A stretch of DNA of 64,000 nt from a virus (taxonomy: Duplodnaviria; Caudoviricetes), in IMG/VR virus record IMGVR_UViG_3300020450_000008. One strand, 5' to 3'. Position numbers and translations under genes: made by a program. Position 1 is the stretch's first letter. Each line of letters starts with the position of its first letter. Positions 36,993 to 64,000 of this stretch are shown here, one piece after another. Under the pieces are notes generated by a model. That model worked only from the letters and a program-made list of their open reading frames with translations, searched no databases and had not been told where the DNA came from.

Positions 36993-38836
36993 TGGCAACA
37001 AATATTTCATCAACAGCTTTAGATTTTATTAATATAAAAGAAAAGCTTAAAACTTATTTAGCAGCAAAAAGTGAATTTGCTGATTATGATTTTGAGGGAT
37101 CTGGTTTGTCGAATATTTTAGATGTTTTAGCGTATAATACACATTTTAATGGTATAGTTGCAAACATGGCTTTAAATGAAGCTTTTATACATACAGCTCA
37201 ATTAAGATCTTCTCTAGTTTCTCATGCTGAATCATTAGGTTTCAATATAAGATCTAAAACTTCAGCTCAAGCAAAATTTACAGCAACTTTAAATTTAAAC
37301 GGAGTTGCCGGTAGAGCTGCTTCGTATACTTTGCCAATAAATTCAGTCATAAGTGGATTTAATGAAGAAGGAACTTTTTCTTTTTTGACTCAAGAAGTTT
37401 ATACCGCGACAGATGATGGTGCTGGATTATATACGTTCAAAGATGCTGATGGAGTTGCTACAGTTACAGCTTTTGAAGGAAGCACTCAAACCAAAACATT
37501 TTTTGTAGGACAAAAAACTGATAGGCAAATATTTGTTATATCAGATGAGAATATTGATACTACAACTGCAGTAGTAAAAGTATTTCCAGATACTACATCA
37601 ACAGCTTTTGTAGAATTTACACCTTTAGAAAAAGCAATAAAAGTAGATTCTAATTCTACTTATTACACTTTAAGAGAAACACCTAATGGTGGATATGAAT
37701 TAAACTTTGGAGATGGAGTTACATTTGGAAAGGCTCCAGAAGCAGGAAGTAAGATAGTGGTAACTTACTTAAGATCAAATGGCCCTTTAGCAAATGATTG
37801 TAAACAATTCACAACTTCAATCGTATATCAAATCAATGCTGCTAATTATTCACTTAATATTGTTCCTACAACAACATCTGTAGGTGGCGGAGAAAAACAA
37901 TCCATAGAATCAATAAGACAATTAGCACCTTCGGCTTTTGCAACACAACAAAGACTTGTTACTTCTGAAGATTATAGAGCTACAATTGCTGCTAATTTTC
38001 CAACAGTATCAGACGTTTCAGTCTGGGGAGGTGAAGATAATATTCCAGTTGATTACGGAAAAGCATATATAAGTCTGACATTCAATGATGGATTAACTGA
38101 AGCATCAAAGACAATAATAAGAAATCAAATTAAAGAAAATTTTTCTGACAATCTTTCAGTTATGTCAATAACTCCTGAGTTTGTTGATCCAGCTGTGTGC
38201 AGAATAGAGATGATTGTATCATTTGCCTTTAATCCAGATTTGACAGGTTCGACAAGTACTGCATTGGAAGACAGAGCCCGTCAAGGTGTAAGAGATTATT
38301 TTACAACAATTAGTGGCTTTGGCAAAACATTTAGAAGATCAAACGTTCTTACTGATATAGACGAGTTAAGTGCTGCAGTGCTAAATTCCTCAATGATAAT
38401 AAAGTTACAGATGAGACTAGAACCCGTGTTAAATGCTGCAGGAAGTTATTCAATAGTTTATCCTGTTAAATTAGCTATACCAGATGATGTTAATCATATA
38501 GTTGAATCATCACTTTTTGAACATAGTGAAGCTGATGGAATTTGTAAAATTGTGAATCAATTAGGAACTAATGTTTTACAAATCGTAAATGTTTCAGATA
38601 ATAATGCAGTTGTAGTTGGTAATATAGGATCATACAGTAGTTCTTCAGGCGAAATAAAATTAGATAATTTTACGCCTACCACTATTCTTAGTGGAGATAA
38701 TTTTATTAAATTTTCTGCAACACCCGCAGATCAAACAACAGTCAAGGCTTTGAGAAACTTTACTTTTGAAATAGATGAAGATAAGTTTACAGTCGGAGCT
38801 ATAATAGATAGGGAAGATGTAAGAGTAACGCTATAA
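36992..38836 (+). CDS. gp6: Baseplate wedge subunit
   Basis: LDFINIK, DYDFEGSGLSNILDVLAYNTH, FGDG..G, QRLVT.EDY, WGGEDN.P..YGK. Confidence 0.93.
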   Translation: MATNISSTALDFINIKEKLKTYLAAKSEFADYDFEGSGLSNILDVLAYNTHFNGIVANMALNEAFIHTAQLRSSLVSHAESLGFNIRSKTSAQAKFTATLNLNGVAGRAASYTLPINSVISGFNEEGTFSFLTQEVYTATDDGAGLYTFKDADGVATVTAFEGSTQTKTFFVGQKTDRQIFVISDENIDTTTAVVKVFPDTTSTAFVEFTPLEKAIKVDSNSTYYTLRETPNGGYELNFGDGVTFGKAPEAGSKIVVTYLRSNGPLANDCKQFTTSIVYQINAANYSLNIVPTTTSVGGGEKQSIESIRQLAPSAFATQQRLVTSEDYRATIAANFPTVSDVSVWGGEDNIPVDYGKAYISLTFNDGLTEASKTIIRNQIKENFSDNLSVMSITPEFVDPAVCRIEMIVSFAFNPDLTGSTSTALEDRARQGVRDYFTTISGFGKTFRRSNVLTDIDELSAAVLNSSMIIKLQMRLEPVLNAAGSYSIVYPVKLAIPDDVNHIVESSLFEHSEADGICKIVNQLGTNVLQIVNVSDNNAVVVGNIGSYSSSSGEIKLDNFTPTTILSGDNFIKFSATPADQTTVKALRNFTFEIDEDKFTVGAIIDREDVRVTL

Positions 38837-39918
38837 TGGCTCAACAAACTTTAACAGATTATGATCGCTTAGAAATAAGCTTTAAAAGGAATCTTGTAAG
38901 AGAAGTTCTTCCTGAATATTTTGCAGGTGAATATCCTAATATAATAACTTTTTTAGAAGGTTATTATGATTTCTTAGACAGTGCAGATAACTTTGGTGAT
39001 ATGATAAATGATTTATACACCATAAGAGATATTGAAGCTTCCTCACTTTTACATTTAGATAATATGTTTAAAGAATATGCTTTAGGAATGTCTCAAGATT
39101 TCTTTAAAAAACCTAGAGAAATATTAAGAAACTTTGCAAGATTCTTTAGAGTAAAAGGATCCAAGTATTCAGCTGAAGGTTTCTTTAGAGGATTTTTTGG
39201 TGAAGATATTGAAGTATCATATCCTAAAACAGATATATTTACTTTAAATGATTCTTCGCATGAGATAGGATCTCATAGTGTTAGTGTATTACAAGATGGA
39301 GAAGCATTTCAAATTTTATCAATTATGATAAAATCACCCTTGTCATTTAATAGATGGGGTGAGTTATATAAAAAGTTTGTACATCCAGTAGGATTCTTTT
39401 TATCGAATGAAGTATTGATAACAGCACAGAATGTAAGTACATTTAGTGCTCTTGGCGCGATATTTGATTCAACTAAAGGTGCTGATCTTCCATTACTTGT
39501 ATTTGATGAAATAACTGGTGTAATTGCCAATCCTTTTGCTGATACAACTATTATGGAGTTAATGGGTGCAACATCATACATACTGGACGGTGCAGGACGT
39601 GAAGTTAATTTTCCAACTACCAATGGAACATATACTGCACTTAGAACTCCAGCCTTTGGTTTAAATGATTCAACGATAAGTTATACTTCACATGATCCAG
39701 GAAGTAATACCGTATTTAATGTAAGATTGGATCCAGATGAGACGATAAGAAAATATAAAGACTTTTCAGTGGATAGTTTAGATACAACGTATGCATCTTT
39801 ATTTGAAATAGGAAAGGCAAGTAGTCCAAAATTTGATAGAGATTCTATTGATGGTGCTACAATTAGAATGTCAAATACAATTGAAAGATTTGACGAAGCT
39901 ACCTATGATTCTCACTGA
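38836..39918 (+). CDS. Baseplate wedge protein (short gp7-like)
   Basis: LPEYF..EYP....FLE.YY, FFRVKG...FFR.FFGE, YKKFVHPVGF; between gp6 and gp8. Confidence 0.6.
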   Translation: MAQQTLTDYDRLEISFKRNLVREVLPEYFAGEYPNIITFLEGYYDFLDSADNFGDMINDLYTIRDIEASSLLHLDNMFKEYALGMSQDFFKKPREILRNFARFFRVKGSKYSAEGFFRGFFGEDIEVSYPKTDIFTLNDSSHEIGSHSVSVLQDGEAFQILSIMIKSPLSFNRWGELYKKFVHPVGFFLSNEVLITAQNVSTFSALGAIFDSTKGADLPLLVFDEITGVIANPFADTTIMELMGATSYILDGAGREVNFPTTNGTYTALRTPAFGLNDSTISYTSHDPGSNTVFNVRLDPDETIRKYKDFSVDSLDTTYASLFEIGKASSPKFDRDSIDGATIRMSNTIERFDEATYDSH

Positions 39919-39925
39919 AAAAAGA

Positions 39926-39933
39926 TATAAATA
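39926..39933 (+). promoter_or_regulatory. Late promoter TATAAATA
   Basis: Exact consensus before gp8. Confidence 0.75.
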
Positions 39934-39958
39934 AACAAAAAAGAAATGGGAAAACGAT

Positions 39959-41302
39959 ATGGCCGCTATATTAACTGACAGATTAAAATTAAAAATAGTC
40001 GATGATATAGTTAAGATATTTGAGGATACTACAAATCCTGCTTACATCGGGTTTGCAAGATCTGAGCAATGGGATAGTACTGATACTGCACCTGCACCTC
40101 TTGCAAGCTTAAATGATGAAAGAAATTTTAATTATAGTCTACAATCAATAAAAAGAATTTCAGCCGTATCGACTGTTGTACCTCGAGTCAATTGGACTAA
40201 TGGAACAATATATCATCAATGGGACGATAAAACAGTAGGATATGGTACTAATTCATTCTATGTATTAACTGAAAATTTTAGTGTGTATATATGTTTAAGA
40301 TCTGGAAGGAATGCTGCAGGTCAATTAGTTCCTTCTACAGTTCAACCTACAGGATCTAATAACGATCCTTTTGTAACAGCCGATGGATATGTTTGGAAAT
40401 TTTTGTATACAATCAGTGAGATTGAAGCAAGAAGGTTTATGACTGCTGGATTCATGCCAACTAAAGTTGTAACTTCTACAGATTCAAACGCTACAGGAAT
40501 AGAATTAAAACAAGAAGAAATACAAAATACTGCTGATCCCAGAAGAATAACATCAGTAGTAGTAGAAAATGGTGGTACTGGCTACACATCAGCTCCTAAT
40601 ATTTTTATAAGAGGTGATGGTGACAGTAACTTTTCTTTAACTGCAACTATCAATGGTGGAGTAGTTACTAAAATAGAATTTGATGCTGATTCATCTACGT
40701 TAAAATACGCGGCTGGTTATACAAAAGCTACGGTTGACATAATTGGCGGCGGTGGATCCGGAGCAAAAGCTCGTGCAATTATAGGACCTGCTGAAGGATT
40801 TGGTAAGAATTCTAAATTAGATCTTAAAACTAGCGCATTAGTACTTCACTCTAAAGTTGAAGGAGCTGATAGTGATTTTATTTTAGGCAATGATTTCAGA
40901 CAAATTGGTATTTTGAGTCATGCTAAAAAGATTGGAAGTGATTCTACTTTTACTGCTCTTACTGGTTTAGTTTTAAATCACATGACCTTATCGGCGACAA
41001 GTCAAGTATTTTCAGCTGATAAGAAAATAGTAGGTGCGACTTCAGGTGCTAAAGCCTTTATAGATAAAGTAGATTCCAATTTAATTTTCTTTCATCAAAC
41101 TTCAGAAACTGGATTTAATTCTTTTTCAGCTGGTGAAACACTTACAGAAAGCAATGGAACAGGTAATGGTGTTATTGGTACTCCACTTATCAAAGGTGAA
41201 GTAGAACCACATTCGCATCAGTTGCTATATCTAAATAATAGAGGCGCGATTGAAAGATCTGCAACTCAGTCTGAAGACATAAAAATTATTATACAATTAT
41301 AA
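39959..41302 (+). CDS. gp8: Baseplate wedge subunit
   Basis: VPRVNWTNGT.Y, FYV......VYICL, DGYVWKFLY, NDFRQIG, RSATQSEDIKIIIQL. Confidence 0.9.
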   Translation: MAAILTDRLKLKIVDDIVKIFEDTTNPAYIGFARSEQWDSTDTAPAPLASLNDERNFNYSLQSIKRISAVSTVVPRVNWTNGTIYHQWDDKTVGYGTNSFYVLTENFSVYICLRSGRNAAGQLVPSTVQPTGSNNDPFVTADGYVWKFLYTISEIEARRFMTAGFMPTKVVTSTDSNATGIELKQEEIQNTADPRRITSVVVENGGTGYTSAPNIFIRGDGDSNFSLTATINGGVVTKIEFDADSSTLKYAAGYTKATVDIIGGGGSGAKARAIIGPAEGFGKNSKLDLKTSALVLHSKVEGADSDFILGNDFRQIGILSHAKKIGSDSTFTALTGLVLNHMTLSATSQVFSADKKIVGATSGAKAFIDKVDSNLIFFHQTSETGFNSFSAGETLTESNGTGNGVIGTPLIKGEVEPHSHQLLYLNNRGAIERSATQSEDIKIIIQL

Positions 41303-41312: not shown

Positions 41313-44300
41313 ATGCCTATTACATTTACAGAAAACATTTTTAACTCGCGCTACAAAGATGATTATGCGGATAGTGACGGATTTCATAAAATACTATTCA
41401 ATCCAAGAAGAGCGTTGCAGGCAAGAGAACTTACGCAACTTCAAACAATAATACAAAAAGAGGTTGAAAGATTTGGTCGTAACCTTTTTAAAGATGGTGC
41501 CGCTGTAAATTCTGGTGGACTTATAATAAATGATAATTATGAGTTTGTAAAAATAACAGACGCTAATTTTCCAGCAAATATTATTGGTGAAACGTTTACT
41601 GGACAAACATCAAATGTTCAAATAAGAGTTTTAGAAACCGTTGCAAGTTCAGGTTCTGATCCTAACACATTATATGTTAGATATACCAATAGTTCTTCAG
41701 GAACATCTGGTACAACCCCGATAAGATTAACACCAGGTGAGCAAATTGATGCTGATAATTTAAGTGTGAATATGACAGTTCAAACTGTTAACACTGCAGC
41801 AAATCCGGCGGTAGGAGCTGGAGTTAGAGTAAGTACTGGATCTGGAGATTTTTTTGTACAAGGAATTTTTGTAAATGCTCCTGCTCAATCAATAATTATT
41901 TCAAAATATAGCAGAGATAAAAGCATAGTAATAGGATTTAAAGTTGTACAAGATATTGTAACTGTAGATGATGATGTATCATTGTTTGATAATCAAGGTT
42001 CGGTTCCAAATCAAACCTCACCCGGAGCTGATAGACACAGAATTAGATTAATACTTACAACTAAAGATGATATAACTGCAACCGATACATTTGTATCTAT
42101 TGGAAAGATAGAAAATTCAAAAATTATAGATGTTGCAATAGGACAAAATCAGTATGGAAAAATAAATGATATAATTGCTCAAAGAACAAAAGAAGAATCT
42201 GGTAATTATATTTTAAGACCATTTACTGTTTCTTATGATTCAGCATCCTCATCAAACCTTAAGTTAACAATAAGTGAAGGGACGGCTTATGTTAATGGTT
42301 ATAGAGTTAATAATCCAACACCTACATTCATTGACGTACCAAGATCAACAAGCACAACAACATTTAACAATGAACCTATATCTTCAGAATATGGTAACTT
42401 TGTAATTGCAACTGAAATAAAAGGTGCAGCTGATATTACACAATTTTCTACTCAAACAATTGCGACAGATGCAAGTAATTTATCTGGAACGGCAATTGGA
42501 TCATGTAGAATTAGATCTGTAGAAGCTTTAAGCGATGGAACATTTAAAATTTATCTGTTCGATATACAGATGACTGGTAATAATAAATTTAGAACAGCAA
42601 GAGTTATAGGAACTTCAGCCACTAACGTCTCAACATTAAAACTTGGATTAGTCAATAACACCCTTGTTGCTGAACTTTTTGAAGCTGATAAAGAAGGATT
42701 ATTCTTTTCACTTCCAAGAACAAGACCTTCAGGTATTGCCGATATATCTTTTGTTGCACAAAGAAAATTTTCTGGAACAACAGATGGCTCAGGAAACTTA
42801 GGTATCTCTGTTACAGCACCGGGTGAAACGTTTGTTAATACAAGTGATTGGTTAGTATATAGAAACGATACTGGTGCTAAAATTACGCCATCATCAATAA
42901 CTGGTAATGCTACTACATCCTCCACAATAGCTACAGGTGTTAATTCTACGGCGGTATCGGTTTTAGTTTATGTTCAAAAAGCTCAAGCCGCACCTAAGAC
43001 TAAAGCTTTAGCAAATCATACGAAGACTGGAGCTTTAGCCGCTGATAGTGATGGATTAGGAAATGGAATTACTGCTTTAACTCTTGATGCAACAGATATT
43101 GTAGGCATAACATCTATTAAAGCTGATAGCGCAGGCGGTATAGATGTTTCACACATGTTTGATCTAGACAATGGTCAGAGAGATGGTTACTATGGACAAG
43201 GAAGAGTAATACTCAAAAGCAATTTTACGAGTCCAGGAACTGTTGTTGCGACTGTACAGCATTTTACTCATACAACAACTGGTGATTTCTTTTCAGCAAA
43301 TTCTTACAGCACTATTCCATATAAAACAATTCCATCATTTACTTCAAAGACAGGTAAGACTTTTAATTTAAGAGATGTTTTAGATTTTAGATCAGTCAAA
43401 GATGTAAGTGGTGCATTTACTGGATCAGGCGCAAGAGTTATAGAACTTCCAAAGAATACAGATGTAATAACAGCTGATAATTCGTATTATATGCCAAGAA
43501 ATGATAAAATAGTAATATCTGAAACTGGTGATCTTAAAGTAATACAAGGTGCATCAGCAATAGTTCCAAAATTTCCAGATACTCCAGCAAACACTATGGA
43601 ACTTTACAGAGTTAAAATGGGAGCTAACACTTTAGATGCGACTGATGTTGCATATGATCAAGTTAGCAAACAAGGCTATACGATGAAGGATATTGGAAAG
43701 ATTGAAAAAAGAGTTGAAAAATTAGAAGAACTTCATAGCTTAAGTTTATTAGAAATAGATACAAATAAATTATCAATTGTTGATTCTGCTGGAAATGAAA
43801 GAATAAAAGCCGGATTTGTTGTAGATAATTTTATTGATCATTTTCATTCTGATATTTCCAATACAGAATATAGAGCTTCAGTAGATCCAAAAGATCACAC
43901 ATTACATCCTGGCTTTTTTGAAAACAATATTGGTTTAGTATTTGATTCAACTGACGTTGATACATCAGGCGTTACAAGAAAAGGTGATAATCTATATGTC
44001 TCTTTTACAGATTCATCATACATTTCTCAAGATCAAGCATCAATAACTTTAGATGTAAATTCATTTGATACATTTCAATTTAATGGTAATATAACACTTT
44101 CTCCATCTTCTGATGAATGGAAGGAAGAAGGTGTTGGCACTAAGGCAATATCAGGTGGTACAAAGCTTTCAAATGATCAAAATGAATTATGGAATAGTTG
44201 GGAATGGAATTGGATAGGAACCGATGCTAATGGACTTGATGTAACAGAAGATGGTACTTCAGAAATAGATACAAGATCATTTAGCGAAAGAACAGGAGCT

Positions 44301-46401: not shown

Positions 46402-46617
46402 ATGAAACTAGTTAAAGTTGATAACAATTCAAATTTAGTAAAAGACGAAGAAACTGGTGCAGTTTTAAATAATAATGTTGAAGACGTAGAAAAGGCAAAA
46501 GAAATAAAAGAAAAAAGAATTGAAAAAGAAGAAGAACTTGTTCAATTAAAAAATGATGTAAGCGAGTTAAAAGATATGATGAAACAACTATTAGAAAAGA
46601 TGAATAACGATGGCTAG
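46402..46617 (+). CDS. Small conserved coiled-coil protein
   Basis: LVKDEETGAVLN...LKNDVSELKDMMKQLL. Confidence 0.7.
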   Translation: MKLVKVDNNSNLVKDEETGAVLNNNVEDVEKAKEIKEKRIEKEEELVQLKNDVSELKDMMKQLLEKMNNDG

Positions 46618-47095
46618 AAAAACTTTTGTAGATTTAAGCGACACACTAAACGCTTTTAGAGTTAAGGCAAACCTAATCTCGTTCAATGTTGGAGATTTGG
46701 ATAGTCTTGCGGCATCACTACCTGATTCAGATTTAGTTCAAGCTATTAATCATTTAAACGGAGCTATTAGTGGAAATGACTCAGATATTGCGGCTCTACA
46801 AACATTTATTGGATTTGGTGGTGGAGGAGGAACAAGCCTTCTTCAACAAATATTAAATAATGATTCTGATATTGCTTCTTTACAAGTTGCAGATTCAGAT
46901 CTTTTAAATTTACAATCACAGATAACTAGCAATGATTCTGATATTGTTAATTTACAATCACAGATAACTGGTAATGATTCTGATATTGCTGCGATTAATA
47001 ATACTGGTTTAATAAGAACAGCAAGCTTAGCTATATTGAGATCTGATGGAAATGTAGTTAAAAGGATTTTTGGTTATACTGATTCAGGAGTATAA
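46610..47095 (+). CDS. Short fibritin/whisker-like coiled-coil protein
   Basis: DT.NAFRVK.N start; repeated (I/T)xxNDSDIxxLQ heptad pairs. Confidence 0.6.
   Translation: MARKTFVDLSDTLNAFRVKANLISFNVGDLDSLAASLPDSDLVQAINHLNGAISGNDSDIAALQTFIGFGGGGGTSLLQQILNNDSDIASLQVADSDLLNLQSQITSNDSDIVNLQSQITGNDSDIAAINNTGLIRTASLAILRSDGNVVKRIFGYTDSGV
46907..46990 (+). repeat. 42-bp tandem repeat, two copies (14 aa = two heptads)
   Basis: AATTTACAATCACAGATAACTAGCAATGATTCTGATATTGTT / ...ACTGGTAATGATTCTGATATTGCT. Confidence 0.85.
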
Positions 47096-53884: not shown

Positions 53885-54274
53885 ATGGCACAATATGAAG
53901 ATTTAATAGTAGACCAAGGCAGTGATGTAGAGATAAAACTCGAACTATTCAATCCTGATGGTTCTAGAAAAATCCTCAACAAATATAATCAAGCAACAAA
54001 TACTCTTATTCCACTTTTTTCTGCAAATGGCAAGATAAAAAAATCTTTCAATTCAAAAGATTCTGATACAACTTCTTTTGGAACGACAACAATATCTCCG
54101 ACTAATGAAGAAAATTGCGTATTTTTGAGTCTCTCAAATACAACAACTGACGCTATGAAAGCAGGTAGATACGTTTATGATGTTGAAATATCTGCAACTG
54201 ATAGTTTCGGAGTAACGACTATAGAAAGAATTTTGGAAGGAAAACTAACGGTTTCACCTTCTGTAACGAAGTAG
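53885..54274 (+). CDS. BppU-N-like baseplate/fibre accessory protein
   Basis: LIVDQGSD, LSLSNTTT..MKAGRYVYDVEI...RILEGKLTVSPSVT. Confidence 0.65.
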   Translation: MAQYEDLIVDQGSDVEIKLELFNPDGSRKILNKYNQATNTLIPLFSANGKIKKSFNSKDSDTTSFGTTTISPTNEENCVFLSLSNTTTDAMKAGRYVYDVEISATDSFGVTTIERILEGKLTVSPSVTK

Positions 54275-54579: not shown

Positions 54580-57500
54580 ATGCCGTCATTAATTCAGATA
54601 AAAAGATCAGCCACCGAGCTCAAACCCGATAAGTTAAGGGTTGGTGAACTTGCCTACTCATATGCTGATAGTTCATTAAAACTATTCATAGGTGTTGGAA
54701 ATGCTGATTCATTTCAAATGGCAGACAGCATTCAGGTTATTGGTGGTAGATTTTACACAAATTTATTAGATGTTGATAGTGCTGGTGTATCTGATCCTGG
54801 TAAATATTTACTATTAGGAGATTCAAGAAATACAGACTTTTTAAAACTTGATTCGGCTAGTATCAATGTATTAAGAACTATAGACAATTTAGTAGTTCCT
54901 GTTGGAACTGATTCTCAAAGACCTTCACCCTTTGCCGTAGGTCAAATAAGATTTAATGTTTCAACTACTCAATTTGAAGGTTATGATGGAAATGCTTGGG
55001 GATCTTTAGGTGGAATAAAAGATATTGACCAAGATACCTTTATAAGTGCAGAAACAAGTCCAAATGCCGACAATGATGATTTAAGATTTTTTACTGCTGG
55101 TACTGGTCGATTAGAAATTGATCAATCAGGAGAGATTGTTGCTGCTGCTGGGTATAGTCCTGATAGTACTCAATCTCTTACAACAAAAGTATATGTTGAT
55201 AACGTTAAAGCAGGTAATCCTTTAGATGGAGATTGGTCAGATGGCGCATACAGATTTTTTAAAGATAGTGACAGAGTTACAGACGTTTTAGATGGTTTGA
55301 ACGAAGCTCTTAACAATGTGAGAAATAATACTTTTGTAAGAGCTTTATCATTTGTTGCTAATCCATTGCAAGGTGGTGCAGGATTTACAACTACGCTTAC
55401 TATTACTAATGATGGTAATCCAAATAGATTTGATATAGACTGGGGTGATGGAAGTGTAGATTCTGGAGTTGCAACTACTACGCCAACACATGTATATACT
55501 GATCCACTTTCAAGTCCAGCTTCAATTGCTATAAGAGCATACAATACAAATGCAAGTGGTGTTGGAAATGAAGCACATAAAACAAATGAAAACTATGTTA
55601 CAATATTTACGGCCGATCCAGTTTCTGATTATGAATTATTCAGAGCACCAACTGGTGGTGTTGCGTTAACTGGCAATGACCTGTATGTTATTGAAGGTCA
55701 ACCACTTTACCTAGACAATGAAACAACATTTACACAAGTTGCTAACAAAGCTGGATTAGCCTTTGTTACATACAATATTGACTGGGGTGATGGTACTGCT
55801 GCTCAAACTATTGCAAGTGATTCAGATGCTGGAGGTGTGATTGGTACGCGATTATCTCATACATGGGGAGCTGGAACAAACACAGGAACTGGTAGAGATA
55901 ATGTTATTTTAACTCTTGCATCTCATACAACTGCTGATCCAGCAACTATTCCAAATACAAATACAAAACAATTAAAAGTTTATGATCCCAATATATCAGC
56001 TCCAAATGGACTAAACACTAAAACTATTTCATTTGTTGGTAATACAGGAATTGATCCTAGACTTCCTGCAGGATTTACTAATAGAATAGGTGGTGGGGCT
56101 ATAACAACTGTAGGTTCTGCAGTTAATAGAACAACCTCTACATCAGGTACTGTCGACACTAGTATTATTTCAAGTTTTGCATTTTCAGCAAACTCCGGAG
56201 TTTTATCAGCCCAAGTTAATAATGTTGCTAATGGTCAGGTAACAATGGACACAACAAGTAAAAATGGATCATACACAAGTTTAAATGTTACAGATCATAG
56301 TGATTATAATCTTCTAAACGCTGGTGGTACAACAATTCCATTTGCTTCAACAATATATCACCCAGGACTTTATTTTGGATTTAAAGCGAGAATTCAAAAA
56401 ACTGCATCAGCAATAAACACTGGTTTAAATAGTTTTGCACTAAATCATACAACAACTGGTTCAACAAATATAGTAGAGTTTGTAAAAGATGATTTAACAG
56501 CTACACCAACAACAAGTGCTGGAACATTAACACAAAATGTAGCTGGTACTTTTAGATATGTAAGTGGAATTCCTTACTATAACACTGGATCTCCAAGTTT
56601 AACATTAAGTGGCGTGCAAATTTCAAACTGGATAGGAAAGGCTTATCGTGGCACTGCACAACCTGTACAAATTCGAAGTGGAACAAATTATGAAAATACT
56701 TCACAATCAGCAATAGTATCAAATCTAAATTATACTTATGCGCAAGTTGATGGATCAACGACATATTTGACTGGAGGAATACCACAAGAAGATACAGGAA
56801 ATGGTGTGGCGTATTCAATTGGTAATTTAACGATTCCAATAACTTCAAATAGTGTACGAACAGTCGAAGATCTTAGAATTAGAACTTTAAACGTGAATGG
56901 AACAGGTTCATACACAAACATAACAGCAACAAAAGTTCAAGTACATACAGCGTCTCAGTCTGGAGTAAATGAAATTAATACTTCTGTAAATGTTGGTGGA
57001 ACATATTCAGATGGTGGAGTTAGAGTATTTGACTTTAACGGAGCAACTATAAATACTCCTAGTTATAGTGGTTCAACTAATTTTTATACAAATAGTCCAT
57101 ATACTGAAGCTACTGATCCAGGAGTTGTAGGAACAAAAGAAGCAACAGTAAGACTAGGAATACTAAAACATGATGTAACTAATTATAGCTCTGGATTTCT
57201 TCCAGTAGGACCAAATAGATCTGGCGATACTGGAAATCAATATTTTACTATGGCATTTCGTAGAACTGCAGTTGCGAACATTGGAATAAACATAACAAGT
57301 GCTACTGGTGTTGTAGGAGTATTTTTAGCCGCACCAGGAACATCAATTGATAACACGAGCACTTTAAACGGTTGGCTTGATTGTTCGGTACAATTTGCAG
57401 GATCTGGAGTTCCAGGAGCAAATATTGGACAAGGTGGAAATGGAAGTAATGGAAGTGCAAGTACTGGAGGTGATAGAATACAGTCAGGAGTTGGATTAAG

Positions 57501-57618
57501 TGGAACATATACGCAAACACTTGGTACTGAAAACTTGACAAATGCGACAGGTAATGTTTGTTTGATAAGAATAGTTTTAAGTTCGGGGCAGTCAGTAACT
57601 GCTTTGAGTATTACATAA
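54580..57618 (+). CDS. Tail fibre/receptor-binding-type protein with PKD-like domains
   Basis: IQIKRS...GELAYS, RP....GQIRFN..TTQFEGYDG, two IDWGDG PKD motifs. Confidence 0.7.
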   Translation: MPSLIQIKRSATELKPDKLRVGELAYSYADSSLKLFIGVGNADSFQMADSIQVIGGRFYTNLLDVDSAGVSDPGKYLLLGDSRNTDFLKLDSASINVLRTIDNLVVPVGTDSQRPSPFAVGQIRFNVSTTQFEGYDGNAWGSLGGIKDIDQDTFISAETSPNADNDDLRFFTAGTGRLEIDQSGEIVAAAGYSPDSTQSLTTKVYVDNVKAGNPLDGDWSDGAYRFFKDSDRVTDVLDGLNEALNNVRNNTFVRALSFVANPLQGGAGFTTTLTITNDGNPNRFDIDWGDGSVDSGVATTTPTHVYTDPLSSPASIAIRAYNTNASGVGNEAHKTNENYVTIFTADPVSDYELFRAPTGGVALTGNDLYVIEGQPLYLDNETTFTQVANKAGLAFVTYNIDWGDGTAAQTIASDSDAGGVIGTRLSHTWGAGTNTGTGRDNVILTLASHTTADPATIPNTNTKQLKVYDPNISAPNGLNTKTISFVGNTGIDPRLPAGFTNRIGGGAITTVGSAVNRTTSTSGTVDTSIISSFAFSANSGVLSAQVNNVANGQVTMDTTSKNGSYTSLNVTDHSDYNLLNAGGTTIPFASTIYHPGLYFGFKARIQKTASAINTGLNSFALNHTTTGSTNIVEFVKDDLTATPTTSAGTLTQNVAGTFRYVSGIPYYNTGSPSLTLSGVQISNWIGKAYRGTAQPVQIRSGTNYENTSQSAIVSNLNYTYAQVDGSTTYLTGGIPQEDTGNGVAYSIGNLTIPITSNSVRTVEDLRIRTLNVNGTGSYTNITATKVQVHTASQSGVNEINTSVNVGGTYSDGGVRVFDFNGATINTPSYSGSTNFYTNSPYTEATDPGVVGTKEATVRLGILKHDVTNYSSGFLPVGPNRSGDTGNQYFTMAFRRTAVANIGINITSATGVVGVFLAAPGTSIDNTSTLNGWLDCSVQFAGSGVPGANIGQGGNGSNGSASTGGDRIQSGVGLSGTYTQTLGTENLTNATGNVCLIRIVLSSGQSVTALSIT

Positions 57619-57627: not shown

Positions 57628-60600
57628 ATGGCAATTTCTACTGATCAAAAGTTAGACTTTTTATGGAAGAAACTCGGTTATGGTAAAACTAAAACCGATA
57701 TTAATTCTATTAAAGCAGCCACAAACGAAGCGATTCCAAGTCCGCTTCTCCTTACTGGTACCGACTTATGGACTGATGCTTATCAAATACCTGGAACAAA
57801 ACCATCTGCTGATACCACTGTAATAGGTCTATATCAGGACGCAGCTGGAGGTGCAAGTAGTGTAGAATGTATCGCTGATGGTACAGCATCGGCTAATCGA
57901 ACTTGGAAAACAAATCTTACTAATTGGATCCCACCTCAGTTTGGCTCAACTTATGGAATTAAAGTTTATTTAGATAACGCTAGTCAAGCTAATCCACAAA
58001 GTACAGGTACAGAATTATTTGCCGCTGGTTCTGGAAATAATGATGAATGGTTTTTTGATTATGCATCTGGTGTTCTTAATTTTATTGGAACAAATCTTCC
58101 AAGCGGTATAGCAGGAAAAAAGATATATATCGTTGGTGCTCGATATATAGGTAAGCTTGGAAATAGATTTACAGCTCTTTATGTTGATTCAGCGGAAATA
58201 AATCATCTTATAGTTGATTCATCAGAAGTTACTTTAACTAATATTATAGAAGCATATATCGATTCTGCGGATATAATGCATGCAATCATAGATTCTGCCG
58301 ATATAACACTTGGTAAGATAGGAACAGCAACATTAACGAACATGACTGCAGATTCTGCTCATGTTAAAACTTTAAGTGCTGATACAATTTACACACCACA
58401 ACTTGATGTTAACATAGTTGTTGCTAATCAGTTACAAGGACCTGCAGAATTAATTATTGATCCTGCAGCTACGGGTGATAATACTGGAAATGTTAAGATA
58501 CTTGGTGGACTTCAAGTTGAAGGGACTACAACCACCGTTAACTCAACAACAGTAAGTTTAAACGATAAGAATTTAGTATTAGCAGACTCTGCTCCAAATC
58601 CTGCCGCTGCTGATGGAGGCGGTATAACTGTAGGTGGTGCAAATGCAACTCTTGAATATAAAGTACTAGGTGATAAATGGGAAGTTAATAAACCATTTCA
58701 TGCTCCTGAATTACATGCTGATTCTGGAGAAATAGTTTCACTTACAGCGACTTCAGGTACAATAGGATCTGTAACTATTGATAGCGCTACTATAAGTCAA
58801 ATTAGTGGTGATTCTGCTCATATTAAATTTATTAAATCAGACTCAGCAGATATAATATTTGGAAAATTTGACTCAGCTAAAATTGATTTTGCAGAAGTAG
58901 ATTTTATTGATGCAAGTTATGGTAATGTTGATTCAGTTGATATTGGTACAGCTAGAATTAATAGTTTACAATTAGCTGGTCAAATACCAAATAGGTTTAT
59001 GGTAAGTGACAGTCTTGGAAACATGACTACTGTGACGGATGCTCAGTTTGGTCCATCTCTTGTCAATCTGTATCAAGGTGCTTTTCAAGTTCAATCTAAT
59101 GGTAATGTTGGAATAGGTAATCAACTAACAGTTGGTGGTGTTACAGTTGAAAGAACTGGAATGACTATTCCACATTTAACAACTGATAAAGTTGTAATAA
59201 CATCATTATCTGATCAACATATTCCTTTTGTTTCAAATAATGATTCTTTAGCACAAAGTGTTAACTTTCAATTTGGTTCAAAATCATCGCAATATGCTCC
59301 AGGAACTTTTGATGGTTTATTAATAGGTTGGAATCCTCTTCAAGACTCTGGTACTTATCGATTTAATGTTGATCAGACTTCAGGTAAAGTAACATCATAT
59401 GGTGGTGCAAAACTTGGTAGACACAACAGAATGGCAGTTGGCCAGTACATTCAGAATTTTCCACAAGGTGATCCTAATTCGTTTAATAGAGATTTCTTTG
59501 GATTAGAAATTTCAAATGATTCTGGTAACTTAATATCAACTGCTTACAAAAATATATTTAAATCACCCATGCCAACTGAAATTACTGGAACGGGACCTGA
59601 TAGCGCGTATGTTTTTGAAATTAGATCTTTTCCAGATCCAGGTTATGAGGACAGTACTCTTTTTGCTGTACGAAGAGATGGATCTATTGCCATCAGAGGA
59701 AATCTTTTAAAAGGCGACAATATAACTGGCTTTTCTGCTGGTGGGATATTTAATCAAAATGAATCAAGTAGAGATGCATTTTATTTTAATGATCCAGCTG
59801 AATATGGACCAACAGGTAGCAAAAGTATAAATCATTATACTTTTGGAAGAGTTGGTCTAGGAACTAAAACTCCACTATATTCTTTTAGCACTGAAGGCAA
59901 CTTTGCATCTAGAGGCGAAATAGACTCTAATAAACTAGAACATTTATTATATAGACCAAAATATTATGGTTATACTGATGATAGTTCTAGAGCTAGATTA
60001 GCATTCATTCCAAGTAAGGCAATGACACGTGGTGGATTCTTTAAGGATAGTAGTTTTAATTCAAATGTAATGGGAATGTTCTCAACAGCGTTTGGTGCTG
60101 AAACAATAGCAACAGGCGTAGGTACATTTGCCGCTGGTTGGGCATCAAAGGCTTTAGGTGATCATGCAATTGCAATAGGCCACAATAATACAACTGGAAA
60201 TACTGGAAACAAAGCTGGAGTTGCAATTGGTGTATTCAACCAGTTTGATTCAAGTTTTGGTCAGGCAGATCATTCAATTGCTATTGGTTTAGAAAATAGA
60301 GTTCGTGGTGATTTTGCTACTGCAATAGGAGAAAGAAATACAGTTGCAGGAAATAATGCTGGTATATTTGGATCTAAAAACTCTATTGGACTTTATGCAG
60401 ATGGAACTTCAGGCACCGTTAATGGAGCAAATTCATACGCCATTGGTAATAATAATGAAATTGGAAAAGCTGTAAGTGCATTACAGTTTGGTACTAATAA
60501 TATTACATCGACTGGTGCATCAACTTCTATTGCTATTGGTTTTAATCATAAAGTAAGAAATCAGCAAGCAATAGCAATAGGTACAAATAATATTATTAAT

Positions 60601-63600
60601 CCTAGAGGCGGTGTTGCAATAGGTCAAAGTATTGAGCTGGATTCAACTGCTGAGTATAGTTTTGCAGTAGGATTGGATGCTGGAGGTACCACAAGAAGAA
60701 CAATTGCTCCTAATATTATGTCAATTAGAGGTGGTAACCTAAATATCGGTGGTGATTCTGATCACTTTACATCTCAGGCTTATAATGCTGAAGGAAACCT
60801 CTATGTAGCTGGAACACTTATAGTTGAAGGCGAAATTCAGCAGGTTGTTGGCGCTGGATTTAGTTCAGCTTCTCCATGGACAGATGGAGGACAATATGTT
60901 ACTTCACAACTACCAGATGGTAGACAGTACGCGGTAGAAAAAGCTGCAGCTCATCAAGATTTTGATATATTAGGTCCTGATGGATTTATTATTGAAGGTA
61001 CTCAAAGAGCTATAACAAGAATAGATCCTAATTTAGCAGGTAGAGTTTTAGATGATGGAGAAGTCAGACATTCTCCTGCTACAGGTGGAGATTCAAACTA
61101 TCCATTTGATAGTGCATTTTTTAATCCTGTATCTACTCACAGAAGTATAATGAGTTATGTTCCAAAGGCTCAAGTATTGAGAATTGGAAACTTTACAAAT
61201 AATGATTATCTCACCAATGCAAAAATTGGTTACGCATCTACAGCAATTGGTCAAGATAACAGAGTTGCTGGTCTATACAGCATGGCATTTGGTAAAGATA
61301 ATGATCTTAGAAGACTTGACTCATCTCAATACTTGGGACAAGATGGTAGCTACTTTAGAGTTTTTGGTGATGAGAATATTGGAGAAAGCAATGCGCACCA
61401 CAATATAATAATTGGTAGTTCCAATAGAATAAAAGGAACAACTAATAACGCTTTTATTATTGGTAGAAATAACGAAGTATCACTTGCTGACAGCACTATG
61501 ATAATCTTAAGACAGGGTACTCATGTTGGTGACAGTTCACTTAATGGTACAAGAGTATTAATAGGAAAAGACGAAAGACTTATAGGTAATCCAGCTGCTG
61601 GCGGGGGAAGAACTGATAGCGCGTTTGCTCTTGACGTAAGAGGTGATATACATCTTGATAGTCCTGGGACAATATACTTTGGAAGCAGAAATATCAGACA
61701 ATATCTTGGATTTGGTGAGGAAGAGACAAAGACCACTACACCTACAACAAATCCACAAAATACTACATCCACTGGATTTATATCTAGAATCCAATCAATA
61801 AGCCAAAAACTTAAAATTACTACAACATCCAATCATGGCTTCACTCAAGGTGGTAACCTTGCTATTAATCTCTTAGGTGTTCCATCTTCTGGAACTAACT
61901 ATATTTCAAATATAAGTCCACCTAATTATTATTTTCCAGTTATTCTTGACGCTACTTCATTTAATTTAAGACATGATTCTCCAACTGGTCCTTTCTTAGA
62001 CTATGATAACGCTGGTGCTGAAAATAGCATTACCAGATATACAACAGCAACACTAGTTGGTGATGATGCTCAAATTGATTATACTGGGACGCAACTAAGA
62101 GAATTGTATTGGGAACCGGCAGCTATTTTACCTGCTGATCTAGATGTAGCAGGTGACTTAAGAGTTGCTGGTACAGGTCCAGGTGGTACACTTGGATTGG
62201 TTGCAGATTCGGCTGGAGTAAAATTTACTGCTAATGCTTTATCTCCTTCTACTGCAACGTATGAATATGAGATGCGTATTGATGGTTTAAAACTTAATGG
62301 TGTTGGTGTAGATAGTCACGTTGTTTTAAGATCAGGTGGATTATTCAATAGTGAAGTTCAAAACATCATTGATTCAGCATATGTACAATTAAGAGCAAGT
62401 AATGATGAGTTTTGGGTAAATGCGGCTAACTCTCTTTATTATGACCCAGCAACTACTGTAAAACCTGTACAAATAGGTCTTAATGATAATGATACCACAG
62501 CCTCAGAAAAATCTAAATATTCTTTACATATTAAGCCAAGAACAACTACTGGTGCCATTAACATAAAAACAAATGGTGCTGGTATACAGTCAAATCAAAG
62601 CCCCATTGATATAGATGGAAGCCCATGGCCGACCAAAGCTTACCTAACACAAAGTGGTTTGATAGATGCCACTTATGTTAATAGTGTTGTCAGTGTAAGC
62701 GCTTCAACAATACAAAACTTTATTGATAATAGCTATGTTAAGAGTATTGCAGATAGTGCTTATATTATTAGTATTGCTTCTGAAATAGCTAATGATAGTT
62801 CTACATGGCAAAGAAATGGTGATACATTATTCTTTGGAACCTATCCAAATGTTGCTAATGTTAATGTTGGAATTGGTATTGAAGATCCTAGAGCAAAATT
62901 TGAAGTTGATGGATCGGTAAGATTTGGAACTAGAACAGGATTTCCAAATTATATAAGTCCTAACATAGCAGTAGACTCCGCTAGATTTGGTGGAAAGTTA
63001 GTAGTAAAAGGTGAAACCGTAACACAAGATCAGGCTTTCGAATTTCATTTTGACTCATCTCATTTACTAGTTGATCAAGGTGGAGCAAACAACAAGACAT
63101 TCTCAGGTGATGCGCCTGGAGCTTCTACAGATGTTACAAGATTAATACTTAACAATCCTTTAGACTCTGGCTATTTTGAAGTTAATCTTGGTGGTGTTAC
63201 TGATGGAAGAGATGGATTTCTTAGAGTATTTAAACAAAATCAAGATCCTGGTGGAAGCATTGATGATTCAAGCACTGAATTACGTCAAGGTCATTATGTA
63301 GATCTCGCGACAAAATACAGAGGCGATTGGTACTTTAAGCCAATAAGTGCAACAGAAGTAAGTACACAATACATTTTAGTTAGAGAAGGTGCTTTTGCTA
63401 CTTCAAATCTTGTAGAAAATCCTCCAGGTACTGGTGCTAGATTTGGAGTTCTAGATCATAGTCTTGTTGTAAAAGACAGATTTGCGCCAACATCTATAAC
63501 ATTCTCTGGTAATGATATGGATGATAGTGCATTGATTTATAATACCACACACAGTACAATATCTCTACACGATAGTACGCTTCAAACTTTTGAAGGTGCA

Positions 63601-64000
63601 AATTCAATACATAGAAATCCATTAAGTGGTACAGACAGTTTTAGCGGGTCATTAAGATACTTAAATCTTGATAACTATAACTTTAATTTTATTAATGGAA
63701 ATTCTTTTTCAGTACAGATAAATGATTCACATAGTCTAGGTGATATATGGCAGATACAAGATAGATCACCTAAGCAAACAACATCTATGGATGTTAGTGG
63801 GCCTGTTATATTTAGAAGAGGAACCGAAGATAATGCCAACGGTGCAGTTGTTATTGAAGATTCAGCTGTAATAGGAAAACTTAGAGTAGATGGTAATTCA
63901 CACTTTAGAGGTGATTCAAGTAGATTTGATGGAAATCTTCAAGTTAGAGAATTAAGAATCGATTCAGACTTTCTAGATAACTCTGGAAATACTATTAGTA
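57628..64000 (+). CDS. Very large tail fibre/adhesin (>2,100 aa, runs off the window; absent from ORF track)
   Basis: ATG at 57628 after TAAGGA (MAISTDQKLDFLWKK...). Translated segments are open and the last bases are in frame (DSDFLDNSGNTIS). Has VEGTTTTVNSTT fibre motif, GNVGIG repeats and YadA-like AIAIG repeats at about 60080-60700. Confidence 0.85.
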   Translation, partial: MAISTDQKLDFLWKKLGYGKTKTDINSIKAATNEAIPSPLLLTGTDLWTDAYQIPGTKPSADTTVIGLYQDAAGGASSVECIADGTASANRTWKTNLTNWIPPQFGSTYGIKVYLDNASQANPQSTGTELFAAGSGNNDEWFFDYASGVLNFIGTNLPSGIAGKKIYIVGARYIGKLGNRFTALYVDSAEINHLIVDSSEVTLTNIIEAYIDSADIMHAIIDSADITLGKIGTATLTNMTADSAHVKTLSADTIYTPQLDVNIVVANQLQGPAELIIDPAATGDNTGNVKILGGLQVEGTTTTVNSTTVSLNDKNLVLADSAPNPAAADGGGITVGGANATLEYKVLGDKWEVNKPFHAPELHADSGEIVSLTATSGTIGSVTIDSATISQISGDSAHIKFIKSDSADIIFGKFDSAKIDFAEVDFIDASYGNVDSVDIGTARINSLQLAGQIPNRFMVSDSLGNMTTVTDAQFGPSLVNLYQGAFQVQSNGNVGIGNQLTVGGVTVERTGMTIPHLTTDKVVITSLSDQHIPFVSNNDSLAQSVNFQFGSKSSQYAPGTFDGLLIGWNPLQDSGTYRFNVDQTSGKVTSYGGAKLGRHNRMAVGQYIQNFPQGDPNSFNRDFFGLEISNDSGNLISTAYKNIFKSPMPTEITGTGPDSAYVFEIRSFPDPGYEDSTLFAVRRDGSIAIRGNLLKGDNITGFSAGGIFNQNESSRDAFYFNDPAEYGPTGSKSINHYTFGRVGLGTKTPLYSFSTEGNFASRGEIDSNKLEHLLYRPKYYGYTDDSSRARLAFIPSKAMTRGGFFKDSSFNSNVMGMFSTAFGAETIATGVGTFAAGWASKALGDHAIAIGHNNTTGNTGNKAGVAIGVFNQFDSSFGQADHSIAIGLENRVRGDFATAIGERNTVAGNNAGIFGSKNSIGLYADGTSGTVNGANSYAIGNNNEIGKAVSALQFGTNNITSTGASTSIAIGFNHKVRNQQAIAIGTNNIINPRGGVAIGQSIELDSTAEYSFAVGLDAGGTTRRTIAPNIMSIRGGNLNIGGDSDHFTSQAYNAEGNLYVAGTLIVEGEIQQVVGAGFSSASPWTDGGQYVTSQLPDGRQYAVEKAAAHQDFDILGPDGFIIEGTQRAITRIDPNLAGRVLDDGEVRHSPATGGDSNYPFDSAFFNPVSTHRSIMSYVPKAQVLRIGNFTNNDYLTNAKIGYASTAIGQDNRVAGLYSMAFGKDNDLRRLDSSQYLGQDGSYFRVFGDENIGESNAHHNIIIGSSNRIKGTTNNAFIIGRNNEVSLADSTMIILRQGTHVGDSSLNGTRVLIGKDERLIGNPAAGGGRTDSAFALDVRGDIHLDSPGTIYFGSRNIRQYLGFGEEETKTTTPTTNPQNTTSTGFISRIQSISQKLKITTTSNHGFTQGGNLAINLLGVPSSGTNYISNISPPNYYFPVILDATSFNLRHDSPTGPFLDYDNAGAENSITRYTTATLVGDDAQIDYTGTQLRELYWEPAAILPADLDVAGDLRVAGTGPGGTLGLVADSAGVKFTANALSPSTATYEYEMRIDGLKLNGVGVDSHVVLRSGGLFNSEVQNIIDSAYVQLRASNDEFWVNAANSLYYDPATTVKPVQIGLNDNDTTASEKSKYSLHIKPRTTTGAINIKTNGAGIQSNQSPIDIDGSPWPTKAYLTQSGLIDATYVNSVVSVSASTIQNFIDNSYVKSIADSAYIISIASEIANDSSTWQRNGDTLFFGTYPNVANVNVGIGIEDPRAKFEVDGSVRFGTRTGFPNYISPNIAVDSARFGGKLVVKGETVTQDQAFEFHFDSSHLLVDQGGANNKTFSGDAPGASTDVTRLILNNPLDSGYFEVNLGGVTDGRDGFLRVFKQNQDPGGSIDDSSTELRQGHYVDLATKYRGDWYFKPISATEVSTQYILVREGAFATSNLVENPPGTGARFGVLDHSLVVKDRFAPTSITFSGNDMDDSALIYNTTHSTISLHDSTLQTFEGANSIHRNPLSGTDSFSGSLRYLNLDNYNFNFINGNSFSVQINDSHSLGDIWQIQDRSPKQTTSMDVSGPVIFRRGTEDNANGAVVIEDSAVIGKLRVDGNSHFRGDSSRFDGNLQVRELRIDSDFLDNSGNTIS

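Follow-up and report, generated by a model that had tools for sequence, protein, structure and literature searches.

The question raised by this locus is why a single dipeptide, Asp-Ser (DS), has accumulated in the outer virion proteins of a marine phage, and whether its serine carries a sugar. The locus is part of the IMG/VR virus record IMGVR_UViG_3300020450_000008, of which a stretch of 64,000 nt (the window) was analysed; the source phage is an uncultured marine T4-like myovirus, and the GC content is ~33% across the window. A first-pass annotation, made from the sequence alone, had proposed that DS motifs concentrated in the distal virion proteins encoded at 38836-64000 are a sequon for virion O-glycosylation. 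In this study, we confirm that the DS excess is real, acts at the protein level and is limited to some of the outer virion proteins, and that it is stronger and more widespread than had been stated. As judged from sequence comparison, DS is a positively selected, lineage-specific mark on outward-facing fibres, the whisker, the peripheral baseplate and a globular protein, ORF 47098. Its serine is a putative O-glycosylation acceptor for GT-A-fold glycosyltransferase (GT) and methyltransferase (MT) genes of the phage, a reading that we hold to be possible and somewhat short of probable.

From 36.9 kb onwards the window encodes gp6, a gp7-like protein, gp8, a DUF4815/VrlC-like protein of 1695 aa, a fibritin-like whisker and ORF 47098, and then, in eight small and closely spaced genes, the enzyme island; a fibre-chaperone-like gene follows, and after it a fibre of 1012 aa and a giant fibre that crosses the window end. 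Expected DS numbers were calculated from each protein's own composition. DS is over-represented in six distal proteins, all encoded on the plus strand: the gp7-like baseplate wedge subunit (38836-39918, 360 aa; Pfam Baseplate_wedge PF23786, E 3.7e-13; 7 DS vs 2.8 expected), the baseplate wedge subunit gp8 (39959-41302, 447 aa; Pfam Phage-Gp8; 7 vs 2.5), the fibritin-like whisker (46610-47095, 161 aa; weak Pfam Fibritin_C match, E 7e-4; 8 vs 2.1), ORF 47098 (47098-48114, 338 aa; globular, with a fold that could not be named; 11 vs 3.3), the fibre protein 54580 (54580-57618, 1012 aa; 11 vs 6.0) and the giant fibre (57628-63999, open at its 3' end, >2124 aa; Pfam YadA_head; 48 vs 14.3). The last is the strongest case (Poisson P 2e-12) and had been missed at first. 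All earlier hand counts were reproduced exactly on recount: besides the numbers given above for the whisker, the gp7-like protein and gp8, these are the 11 DS in ORF 47098, where 11 of 34 Asp are followed by Ser, the seven DS within the first 115 aa of ORF 54580 (positions 30-111), and the low counts in gp32 (22996-23931; 0 in 311 aa) and gp6 (36992-38836; 1 in 614 aa).

Pooled over the six proteins, 92 DS were observed against 31.1 expected (observed/expected ratio, O/E, 2.96; z 10.9). DS ranks first among the 400 dipeptides in this set, the runner-up having a z of 3.7, and ES, DT, DA and DD are depleted. Ser follows Asp in 28% of cases, compared with 4.4% (43/968) in the remainder of the window. 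The other 59 ORFs are depleted in DS (43 vs 63.0; O/E 0.68, P 0.005); for the block of inner tail and baseplate proteins O/E is 0.48. The six enriched proteins differ in architecture and comprise coiled-coil, globular, baseplate wedge and beta-rich fibre proteins. The label 'distal virion proteins' proved too broad, because the large DUF4815/VrlC-like structural protein (41313-46400, plus strand; Pfam DUF4815, E 4e-60) lies within the same region and is at background (11 DS vs 12.0); its homologues have a mean O/E of 1.1. The suggestion that the constraint is on the protein was borne out. The DS serines are encoded by TCA (30), AGT (26), TCT (25) and AGC (6), and four of the 11 in ORF 47098 use AGY codons; since this mirrors overall Ser codon usage, the constraint acts on the protein and not on the DNA. 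A cause at the DNA level, in which GAT/GAC followed by TCN would create GANTC sites, was rejected on the same ground, 35% of the codons being AGY.

We then asked how far the excess extends among relatives. The nearest match of gp6 is Phage C48C1 (Kyanoviridae; 39% identity), followed by cyanomyophages and the Pelagibacter phage HTVC008M. A megablast search against 'phages' did not find a near relative of the window; an IMG/VR contig (loci L005 and L012 of our sample) is nearly a copy of it between 16.8 and 59.7 kb, with genes 82-100% identical. Long stretches of T4, HTVC008M, C48C1 and the cultured Pelagibacter phage Mosig have DS O/E values of 0.83-0.99. T4 gp7, gp8, gp9-12, wac and gp34-37 and their HTVC008M and C48C1 homologues range from 0.5 to 1.9; the value of 1.9 for T4 gp8 rests on three sites, and the sole individually significant case is a 1568-aa C48C1 protein at 1.75. 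The fibres of Mosig lie at 0.2-1.4. A total of 106 related loci was sampled, 27 via the glycosyltransferase gene 51993 and 80 via the fibre chaperone gene 53885-54274. Among these loci, one part of the marine group commonly has DS-rich fibres (O/E 2-4, P down to 1e-12), and another part has none. DS richness is a trait of a lineage and not peculiar to the source phage.

The behaviour of individual sites points to selection on the dipeptide itself. At 137 aligned DS sites from five homologue pairs, D is kept at 104, S at 103 and both at 98, and replacement by DT, ES or NS is rare. D and S are accordingly kept or lost jointly, which supports DS as a selected unit at the protein level. In fibre 54580, seven to nine of the 11 DS are conserved at 64-65% identity. 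In gp8, zero to four sites are shared with homologues at 35-47% identity, so positions turn over among lineages. The DS density of gp8 covaries with that of the fibres (Spearman 0.72, P 0.001; 17 loci, kinship uncorrected): pooled gp8 DS number 58 against 21.0 expected in loci with DS-rich fibres and 21 against 16.4 in loci with DS-poor fibres. The independent DS-rich lineages behind this covariation perhaps number three or four.

The giant fibre shows how such sites may have arisen. Its N-terminal anchor is common to gp074 of phage phiCbK, and the phiCbK homologue has DA, DG or DP at the DS positions of the window phage and no DS at all; for example, I-DS-A-D-I-T in the window phage corresponds to DA-V-D-I-T in phiCbK. 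The anchor Asp looks like an old structural residue to which this lineage has added the Ser. A lineage-specific addition of Ser after Asp is suggested also because the T4, HTVC008M and C48C1 homologues lack a strong excess. The first ~180 aa of the giant fibre (57628-58170) have homologues (E 1e-18 to 1e-26) among small proteins of phiCbK-like Caulobacter phages (L200:6001-6699) and of phages that infect Brevundimonas, Agrobacterium and Sinorhizobium. This N terminus looks like a fibre-anchor domain shared by phages of Alphaproteobacteria.

The sharpest change was seen in the ORF 47098 family. Among 34 homologues, 28 have 0-3 DS and six have 9-16. The six DS-rich members form one clade with long branches (support 97/92), and within it 2-5 DS positions are shared at 32-39% identity, which argues for many independent gains of DS. 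Asp content is doubled in this clade, and nearly all of the extra Asp stands in DS. The same six are exactly the loci that possess a GT-MT-GT-MT sub-island (48548, 49294, 49913, 50562). Homologues outside the clade are depleted in DS (16 vs 54); this is not read as avoidance, because most of their Asp belongs to conserved motifs (DTR, DTF, TDT, DQP), which dictate the residue that follows. Mapping of DS sites onto predicted structures, as the first-pass annotation had advised, was carried out for ORF 47098 as the sole protein modelled for this purpose. In its AlphaFold2 model (predicted local distance difference test, pLDDT, 84; predicted template modelling score, pTM, 0.81) all 11 DS are placed in loops, helix N-caps or strand ends, with four at helix N-caps, three at strand ends and several in loops of low pLDDT. 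A Foldseek search of the model against the PDB gave no match at E 1e-3 or better. A resemblance to the C-terminal beta-prism of MACPF proteins was considered, and no call was made, the VIA-align Z scores of 7.0 and 6.6 being inside the noise range of the tool. ORF 47098 is conserved beside the whisker in more than 30 marine myovirus loci, and locus L009 has two copies, one DS-rich and one not.

The enzymes that could act on these proteins are encoded directly downstream. The island begins 15 nt past ORF 47098, its genes overlap by 1-13 nt, and all of them lie on the plus strand. The first ORF (48130-48555, 141 aa) has no family match and no named function, and is conserved beside ORF 47098 homologues. 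It is followed by a predicted GT-A glycosyltransferase with a GT8/GT24-like retaining fold and a DLD motif (48548-49306; fold match of the AlphaFold2 model, Atlas lead to nucleotide-sugar transferases and weak Pfam GT8 match), an MT-like gene (49294-49920) that is a paralogue of 50562 (BLASTP E 1e-9), and a second GT-A gene (49913-50572), a paralogue of 48548 at 34% identity (BLASTP E 3e-35; weak PHROG glycosyltransferase match; invariant DxD). Next come a class I S-adenosylmethionine (SAM)-dependent MT-like gene (50562-51140; Atlas 0.97 to viral methyltransferase clusters, as a lead only) and an ORF without a family (51137-52003, 288 aa), which has no Pfam, PHROG or NCBIfam match and a homologue in locus L006. 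The most conserved gene of the island is a GT8-like glycosyltransferase with a DID motif (51993-52925), which was found in 27 related loci (Atlas 0.98 to viral clusters, 11-23% of whose members have PF01501, as a lead) and has a paralogue at 19645-20526 in the window. Another GT-A-like gene with a DID motif (52925-53593), which clusters with the 49913 family by BLAST, brings the number between ORF 47098 and the fibre chaperone to four. The tail-fibre assembly chaperone-like gene itself (53885-54274, plus strand) matches PHROG 3304, 'L-shaped tail fiber protein assembly' (E 4e-9). Most island ORFs remained unnamed by Pfam, PHROGs and NCBIfam, even at E 10. An assignment of 50562 as a protein-isoaspartate methyltransferase was dropped, its Atlas value of 0.87 being below the lead threshold.

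The AlphaFold2 model of 48548 (pLDDT 83, pTM 0.87) has a GT-A fold and matched the UGGT catalytic domain, A64R of chlorella virus PBCV-1, glycogenin, GlyE, LARGE1 and LgtC with a Foldseek probability of 1.0. There were 121 PDB matches at E 1e-3 or better, and the best 50 are all GT-A-fold glycosyltransferases. D110 and D112 are invariant in the alignment of the 48548/49913 family as a DxD motif. By modelled fold and DxD motif, 48548 thus qualifies as a predicted GT-A glycosyltransferase. Its top structural matches include enzymes that act on proteins or protein-borne glycans (A64R, UGGT, glycogenin, GlyE); its acceptor, however, cannot be read from the fold, because LgtC, which acts on lipopolysaccharide, and glycogenin match too. 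T4-type late-promoter words precede gp8 and the chaperone gene, and none is found within the island, from which it is reasonable to suppose that the island is co-expressed late with the structural genes. A GT/MT island inside the late structural module is therefore supported. At least nine GT-like genes had been counted in the window at first sight; some support was obtained for the four in the module (48548, 49913, 52925, 51993), a Pfam GT25 match at 2005 and the 51993 paralogue at 19645, and only for these.

The position of the island recalls the host recognition cluster (HRC) of pelagimyophages and cyanomyophages, which the available text of its description presents as a variable island after VrlC with fibres, GT8 enzymes and radical-SAM cassettes (Zaragoza-Solas et al., 2020; PMC7029224). 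Here, too, a variable island within the structural module starts past the VrlC-like DUF4815 protein, after which come the whisker, ORF 47098, the GT/MT genes, the chaperone gene and the fibres. This order, from the VrlC-like gene through whisker, ORF 47098 and island to the fibres, is kept in the 27 related loci with variable content. Fibre genes (54580, 57628) likewise stand with GT8-type glycosyltransferases (48548 by fold, 51993 as a lead), and the relatives of the window are marine and of Kyanoviridae type. The HRC ends at the neck gene gp14, and that end is beyond the window, which stops inside the giant fibre. The DS bias, the covariation between proteins and the switch in ORF 47098 are additional to the HRC account, whose available text (PMC7029224) mentions no motif of virion proteins.

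On the leading single reading, which a purely structural one equals in probability, the serine of DS would be the acceptor of a stepwise O-glycosylation that takes place in the cytoplasm late in infection. The phage's own GT-A enzymes would add the sugars and the paired methyltransferases would cap them, the enzymes being encoded among the genes of their substrates; the glycosyltransferases would accordingly act on protein rather than on host lipopolysaccharide. In its general form, the idea would be that marine T4-like phages coat fibres, whiskers and the baseplate rim with methylated sugars on DS serines by means of HRC GT8-like glycosyltransferases, and that newly acquired GT-MT pairs extend the coat to further proteins, such as ORF 47098. 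We consider this wider statement possible, though somewhat less likely than the narrower one.

Known systems offer partial parallels. To our knowledge, mycobacteriophages are the only established case of virion glycosylation in tailed phages. There, virion proteins are O-glycosylated by phage-encoded glycosyltransferases (Freeman et al., 2023, as cited in PMC12619734 and PMC12801897), and GT genes adjoin structural genes as they do here. The mycobacteriophage glycans, however, sit on C-terminal extensions of capsid and tail-tube subunits and not on fibres or baseplate (according to the available text of PMC12619734), the hosts are Actinobacteria, and the accessible parts of the two citing papers (PMC12619734, PMC12801897) describe no dipeptide sequon spread over the proteins. 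A second virus, PBCV-1, is brought in by structure: A64R (PDB 2P6W, 2P72, 2P73), a virus-encoded GT-A enzyme that builds the glycan on the major capsid protein, ranks second among the structural matches of 48548 (E 5e-7, TM score 0.63 by target), though with a root-mean-square deviation of 5.8 A and 12% identity. The glycan that A64R elongates is N-linked, and PBCV-1 infects a eukaryote. Among bacterial adhesins, AIDA-I, TibA and Ag43 are O-heptosylated in the cytoplasm by AAH/TibC, and staphylococcal Ser-Asp repeats are O-GlcNAcylated by SdgA/SdgB. In these systems, as proposed here, the acceptor is a Ser at the turns of repeated adhesins, and the Ser-Asp repeats present an Asp-flanked Ser. 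In AIDA-I and TibA the glycosylated serines lie at turns of beta-helix repeats. DS could likewise be structural and an acceptor at once, because the sites stand at turns and helix caps. The enzyme genes of AAH/TibC and SdgA/SdgB are also linked to the substrate gene, as in flagellin systems (PMC12645811). The enzymes themselves are different, being BAHT enzymes or GT4 enzymes of GT-B fold, whereas those of the window are GT-A and GT8-like, and no homology was found between them.

If DS were a glycosylation site, its distribution would be expected to follow that of the glycosyltransferases, and this was seen in part. The chaperone-anchored sample, which had not been selected by GT content, was used with GT-A genes counted within 10 kb: fibres are DS-rich in 11 of 17 loci that have an island-type GT-A gene and in 15 of 54 that lack one (Fisher P 0.009, with no correction for phylogeny). 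A screen of gene families against the DS status of fibres gave P ~3e-5 for GT and MT families. Several observations weigh against glycosylation as the cause. The structural ORF 47098 family gives the same P value in this screen, so the association mainly measures clade membership, and the coincidence of DS-rich ORF 47098 with the sub-island is a single evolutionary event, because the six loci form one clade. The first-pass annotation had named equal enrichment in phages without glycosyltransferases as an outcome that would speak against its proposal, and this was partly found, the 15 loci mentioned having DS-rich fibres and several GT-bearing loci, as well as Mosig, being DS-poor. In L084 and L088 the DS-rich giant fibres directly follow VrlC without any island, and in L039 and L043 they adjoin radical-SAM clusters. 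Searches for 51993 and for homologues of the 48548/49913 profile found none that convinced in five DS-rich, GT-less contigs, the records of which are 9-53% complete. Orthologues of 51993 from DS-poor and DS-rich lineages are interleaved, and their tree needs at least three changes; for the same reason a division of 51993 into paralogue groups, one of them confined to DS-poor loci, was rejected. In Mosig, a 51993-like gene lies within a large sugar-biosynthesis island, and there is no DS excess. The DUF4815/VrlC-like protein acts as an internal negative control within the module. Furthermore, the HRC GT8 genes have been read, in the available text, as modifiers of the host O-chain that block co-infection (Zaragoza-Solas et al., 2020; PMC7029224). 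The last points against concern the fibrous proteins themselves, in which DS stands partly in exact 10-residue arrays in the fibre and opens coiled-coil segments in the whisker, and in which 23 of 32 aligned DS of the giant fibre (72%) are conserved at 43% identity, compared with a dipeptide background of 23%.

These last points lead to a purely structural explanation, which we find quite possible without being probable: DS would be an unmodified turn or helix N-cap motif preferred by this lineage in trimeric fibrous proteins, in beta-layer or stammer units of alpha/beta coiled coils or at corners of beta-solenoids, and the nearby glycosyltransferases would act on the host envelope. The giant fibre has an N-terminal anchor domain, two arrays of 10-residue DS-A-x-I units (aa 187-245 and 385-435) and a YadA-like head (~aa 820-990) with PDB sequence matches to CbpF and YadA, and DS spacings of 10, 14 and 20 recur in it. 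A PDB sequence search with its residues 1-700 gave no match. The YadA-head repeat was considered as a source of DS and set aside, as the head uses DH, DF or NS before A-I-A-I-G and holds few DS. The flanks of DS are hydrophobic at -2/-3, +4 and +6, which fits strand-turn-strand, and five of the eight whisker DS belong to a repeated unit, (N)-DS-D-(I/L)-x-x-(L/I). Where the whisker has N-DS-D-I-x-x-L-Q, T4 fibritin has N-x-S/T. The positions of DS at four helix N-caps and three strand ends of ORF 47098 agree with such a role, as do the DS-rich fibres without nearby glycosyltransferases and the glycosyltransferases without DS. According to Hartmann et al. (2016; PMC4786415), beta-layers arise where trimeric coiled coils carry short inserts, and they occur widely in phage fibres; the helix that follows such a layer is nearly always capped by D, N, T or S, and nonad repeats build fibres. 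The 10-residue DS arrays and the whisker repeats would fit such phased short repeats with a D/N/T/S cap; the canonical motifs, however, are MATKDD and KADKAD and not D-S (PMC4786415). A structural role also leaves the choice of DS unexplained, as the equally good caps DT, NS, NT and ES are depleted or neutral, and beta-layers account neither for this exclusion of DT, NS and ES nor for DS in the globular ORF 47098, in gp8 and in the gp7-like protein. Nor does it explain the joint loss of D and S, the tracking of fibre DS density by the non-fibrous gp8, the gain of 9-16 loop DS by one ORF 47098 clade while 28 homologues have 0-3, or the depletion of DS in other proteins of the same phage. The two readings, which we weigh equally, face opposite difficulties: the gp8 covariation and the ORF 47098 switch are not explained by structure, and fibre DS does not cleanly track the glycosyltransferases.

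Other roles of the dipeptide require neither a sugar nor a fixed fold. DS patches might bind divalent cations or structure water in seawater and, without covalent change, stiffen the fibres or bridge them to the whisker and baseplate periphery, for example in a retracted, stored state. The enriched proteins do touch or carry fibres (whisker, gp7-like, gp8 and the fibres), and T4 whiskers hold retracted fibres; an Asp carboxylate and a Ser hydroxyl kept as a unit, enrichment at the level of the lineage and a mechanism without any enzyme, which fits the loose link to glycosyltransferases, are in line with this. We judge it improbable, as no known Ca-binding motif matched the DS-rich proteins in Pfam, DD and DxD are depleted, opposite to classic Ca sites, and the ORF 47098 lineage switch is not explained. 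An equally low probability goes to DS as the site of a different covalent change (phosphorylation, hydroxylation, a radical-SAM cross-link or methyl esterification) by other enzymes of the cluster. Three to four radical-SAM genes do stand beside a DS-rich giant fibre in L039 and L043, five of six evaluable loci with a homologue of the radical-SAM gene 18521 are DS-rich, and the window island has two methyltransferase-like genes. Asp/Arg hydroxylase-like genes occupy the same place in L006 and Mosig, neither of which is DS-rich in its countable proteins. However, each of these enzyme families is missing from some DS-rich loci, phylogeny confounds the association, and we know of no modification that uses a D-S site with these enzymes.

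The sequon in the original proposal was that of Bacteroidetes, reportedly D-(S/T)-(A/I/L/V/M/T) (Fletcher, 2009; Coyne, 2013), and this part of it fails. Modification of the virion proteins by a Bacteroidetes-type O-glycosylation system of the host is effectively refuted by the motif statistics, and we assign it a practically negligible probability. The likeness lies in an Asp before the acceptor Ser and in an Ala that is common at the third position: DS-Ala is over-represented in the six distal proteins (25 vs 7.2), and Ala is the only residue enriched there. Thr, however, is not used as an acceptor after Asp, DT being depleted (18 vs 29.7) where DS is in excess; I, L, V and M together are depleted at position 3 (7 vs 19.5); and the third residue falls into the A/I/L/V/M/T set in 43 of 92 cases against a background of 38% (P 0.11), so that the set is not enriched. 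Bacteroidetes O-glycosylation moreover acts in the periplasm by en bloc transfer, whereas the assembly of T4-like virions is cytoplasmic. Of the two routes, both reviewed in PMC12645811, the stepwise cytoplasmic one, as in flagellin glycosylation, is the relevant model. Nor does anything point to a Bacteroidota host: the nearest cultured relatives have Pelagibacter or cyanobacteria as hosts, and a Bmp-like gene at 905-1924 has its best 80 bacterial matches mostly in Alphaproteobacteria, with no Bacteroidota among them and with marine alphaproteobacterial homologues at 56-66% identity. This gene encodes a Bmp/PnrA-like ABC-transporter substrate-binding protein (Pfam E 3e-51) and is apparently host-derived; it also has a 75% match on a contig of 29.6 kb, which was binned as Verrucomicrobiales and may be a phage contig itself. 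As for the proposal of DS glycosylation on the virion as a whole, the GT/MT island, the behaviour of DS as a selected unit, its place in loops and the ORF 47098 clade speak for it; the sequon and the DS-rich loci without glycosyltransferases speak against it.

Glycosylation of DS serines, if true, would be of more than local interest, as pelagimyophage-like and cyanomyophage-like viruses are among the commonest large marine phages, and the glycosyltransferases of their fibre clusters have been credited, without any test, with remodelling the host surface. It would be the first case of a phage virion glycosylated at a sequon, would change the view of host range, decoy avoidance, particle stickiness and grazing or immune recognition of marine phages, and would allow glycosylated virion proteins to be recognised in metagenomes by a sequence rule. 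If the serines are bare, DS is a marker of fibre architecture, and the reading of the glycosyltransferases as modifiers of the host envelope stands.

The fibre clusters of relatives hold further enzymes. In L039:621-9840 and L043:589-5843 (IMG/VR 3300029263_000817 and 3300025886_000014) the fibre chaperone gene is immediately preceded by the three to four radical-SAM genes, one of which has a B12-binding domain, and the DS-rich giant fibre is ~3200 aa long. Homologues of the radical-SAM gene 18521-19321 of the window were found in the fibre clusters of L020, L024, L027, L044, L048, L055, L078 and L083. The radical-SAM cluster may be a fibre-modifying or sugar-modifying cassette. In Mosig (EXVC030M; L199, 54-73 kb), a ~20-kb enzyme island lies between the fibre genes and the VrlC/baseplate genes and is annotated with two Asp/Arg hydroxylases, a TauD-like dioxygenase, three MoaA-like radical-SAM proteins, a sugar aminotransferase, a carbamoyltransferase, methyltransferases, nitroreductases and an epimerase; the 51993-like glycosyltransferase was placed there by tblastn. 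In L006:13242-15684 (TARA scaffold_828) a fatty-acid (FA) desaturase, two Asp/Arg-hydroxylase-like genes and a methyltransferase replace the GT island. As L006 has other enzymes at this place, the enzyme content of the cluster seems to be freely exchanged.

Some genes far upstream of the structural module also deserve mention. A 165-aa NuoB-like ORF (6842-7339; NADH-ubiquinone oxidoreductase 20-kDa subunit, Oxidored_q6, E 4e-29) is unusual in a phage, and the early or auxiliary region encodes a protein with a class 3 lipase domain (8595-9398; Lipase_3, E 6e-21). A KdsA/DAHP-synthase-I family gene (E 1e-49) adjoins a truncated class II aminoacyl-tRNA-synthetase-like ORF of 284 aa on the opposite strand (tRNA-synt_2, E 1e-14); the pair is located at 15988-16803 and 17007-17861 (minus strand). 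It is followed by the radical-SAM gene (18521-19321) and the 51993 paralogue at 19645, and together these genes may constitute a second sugar-related cluster.

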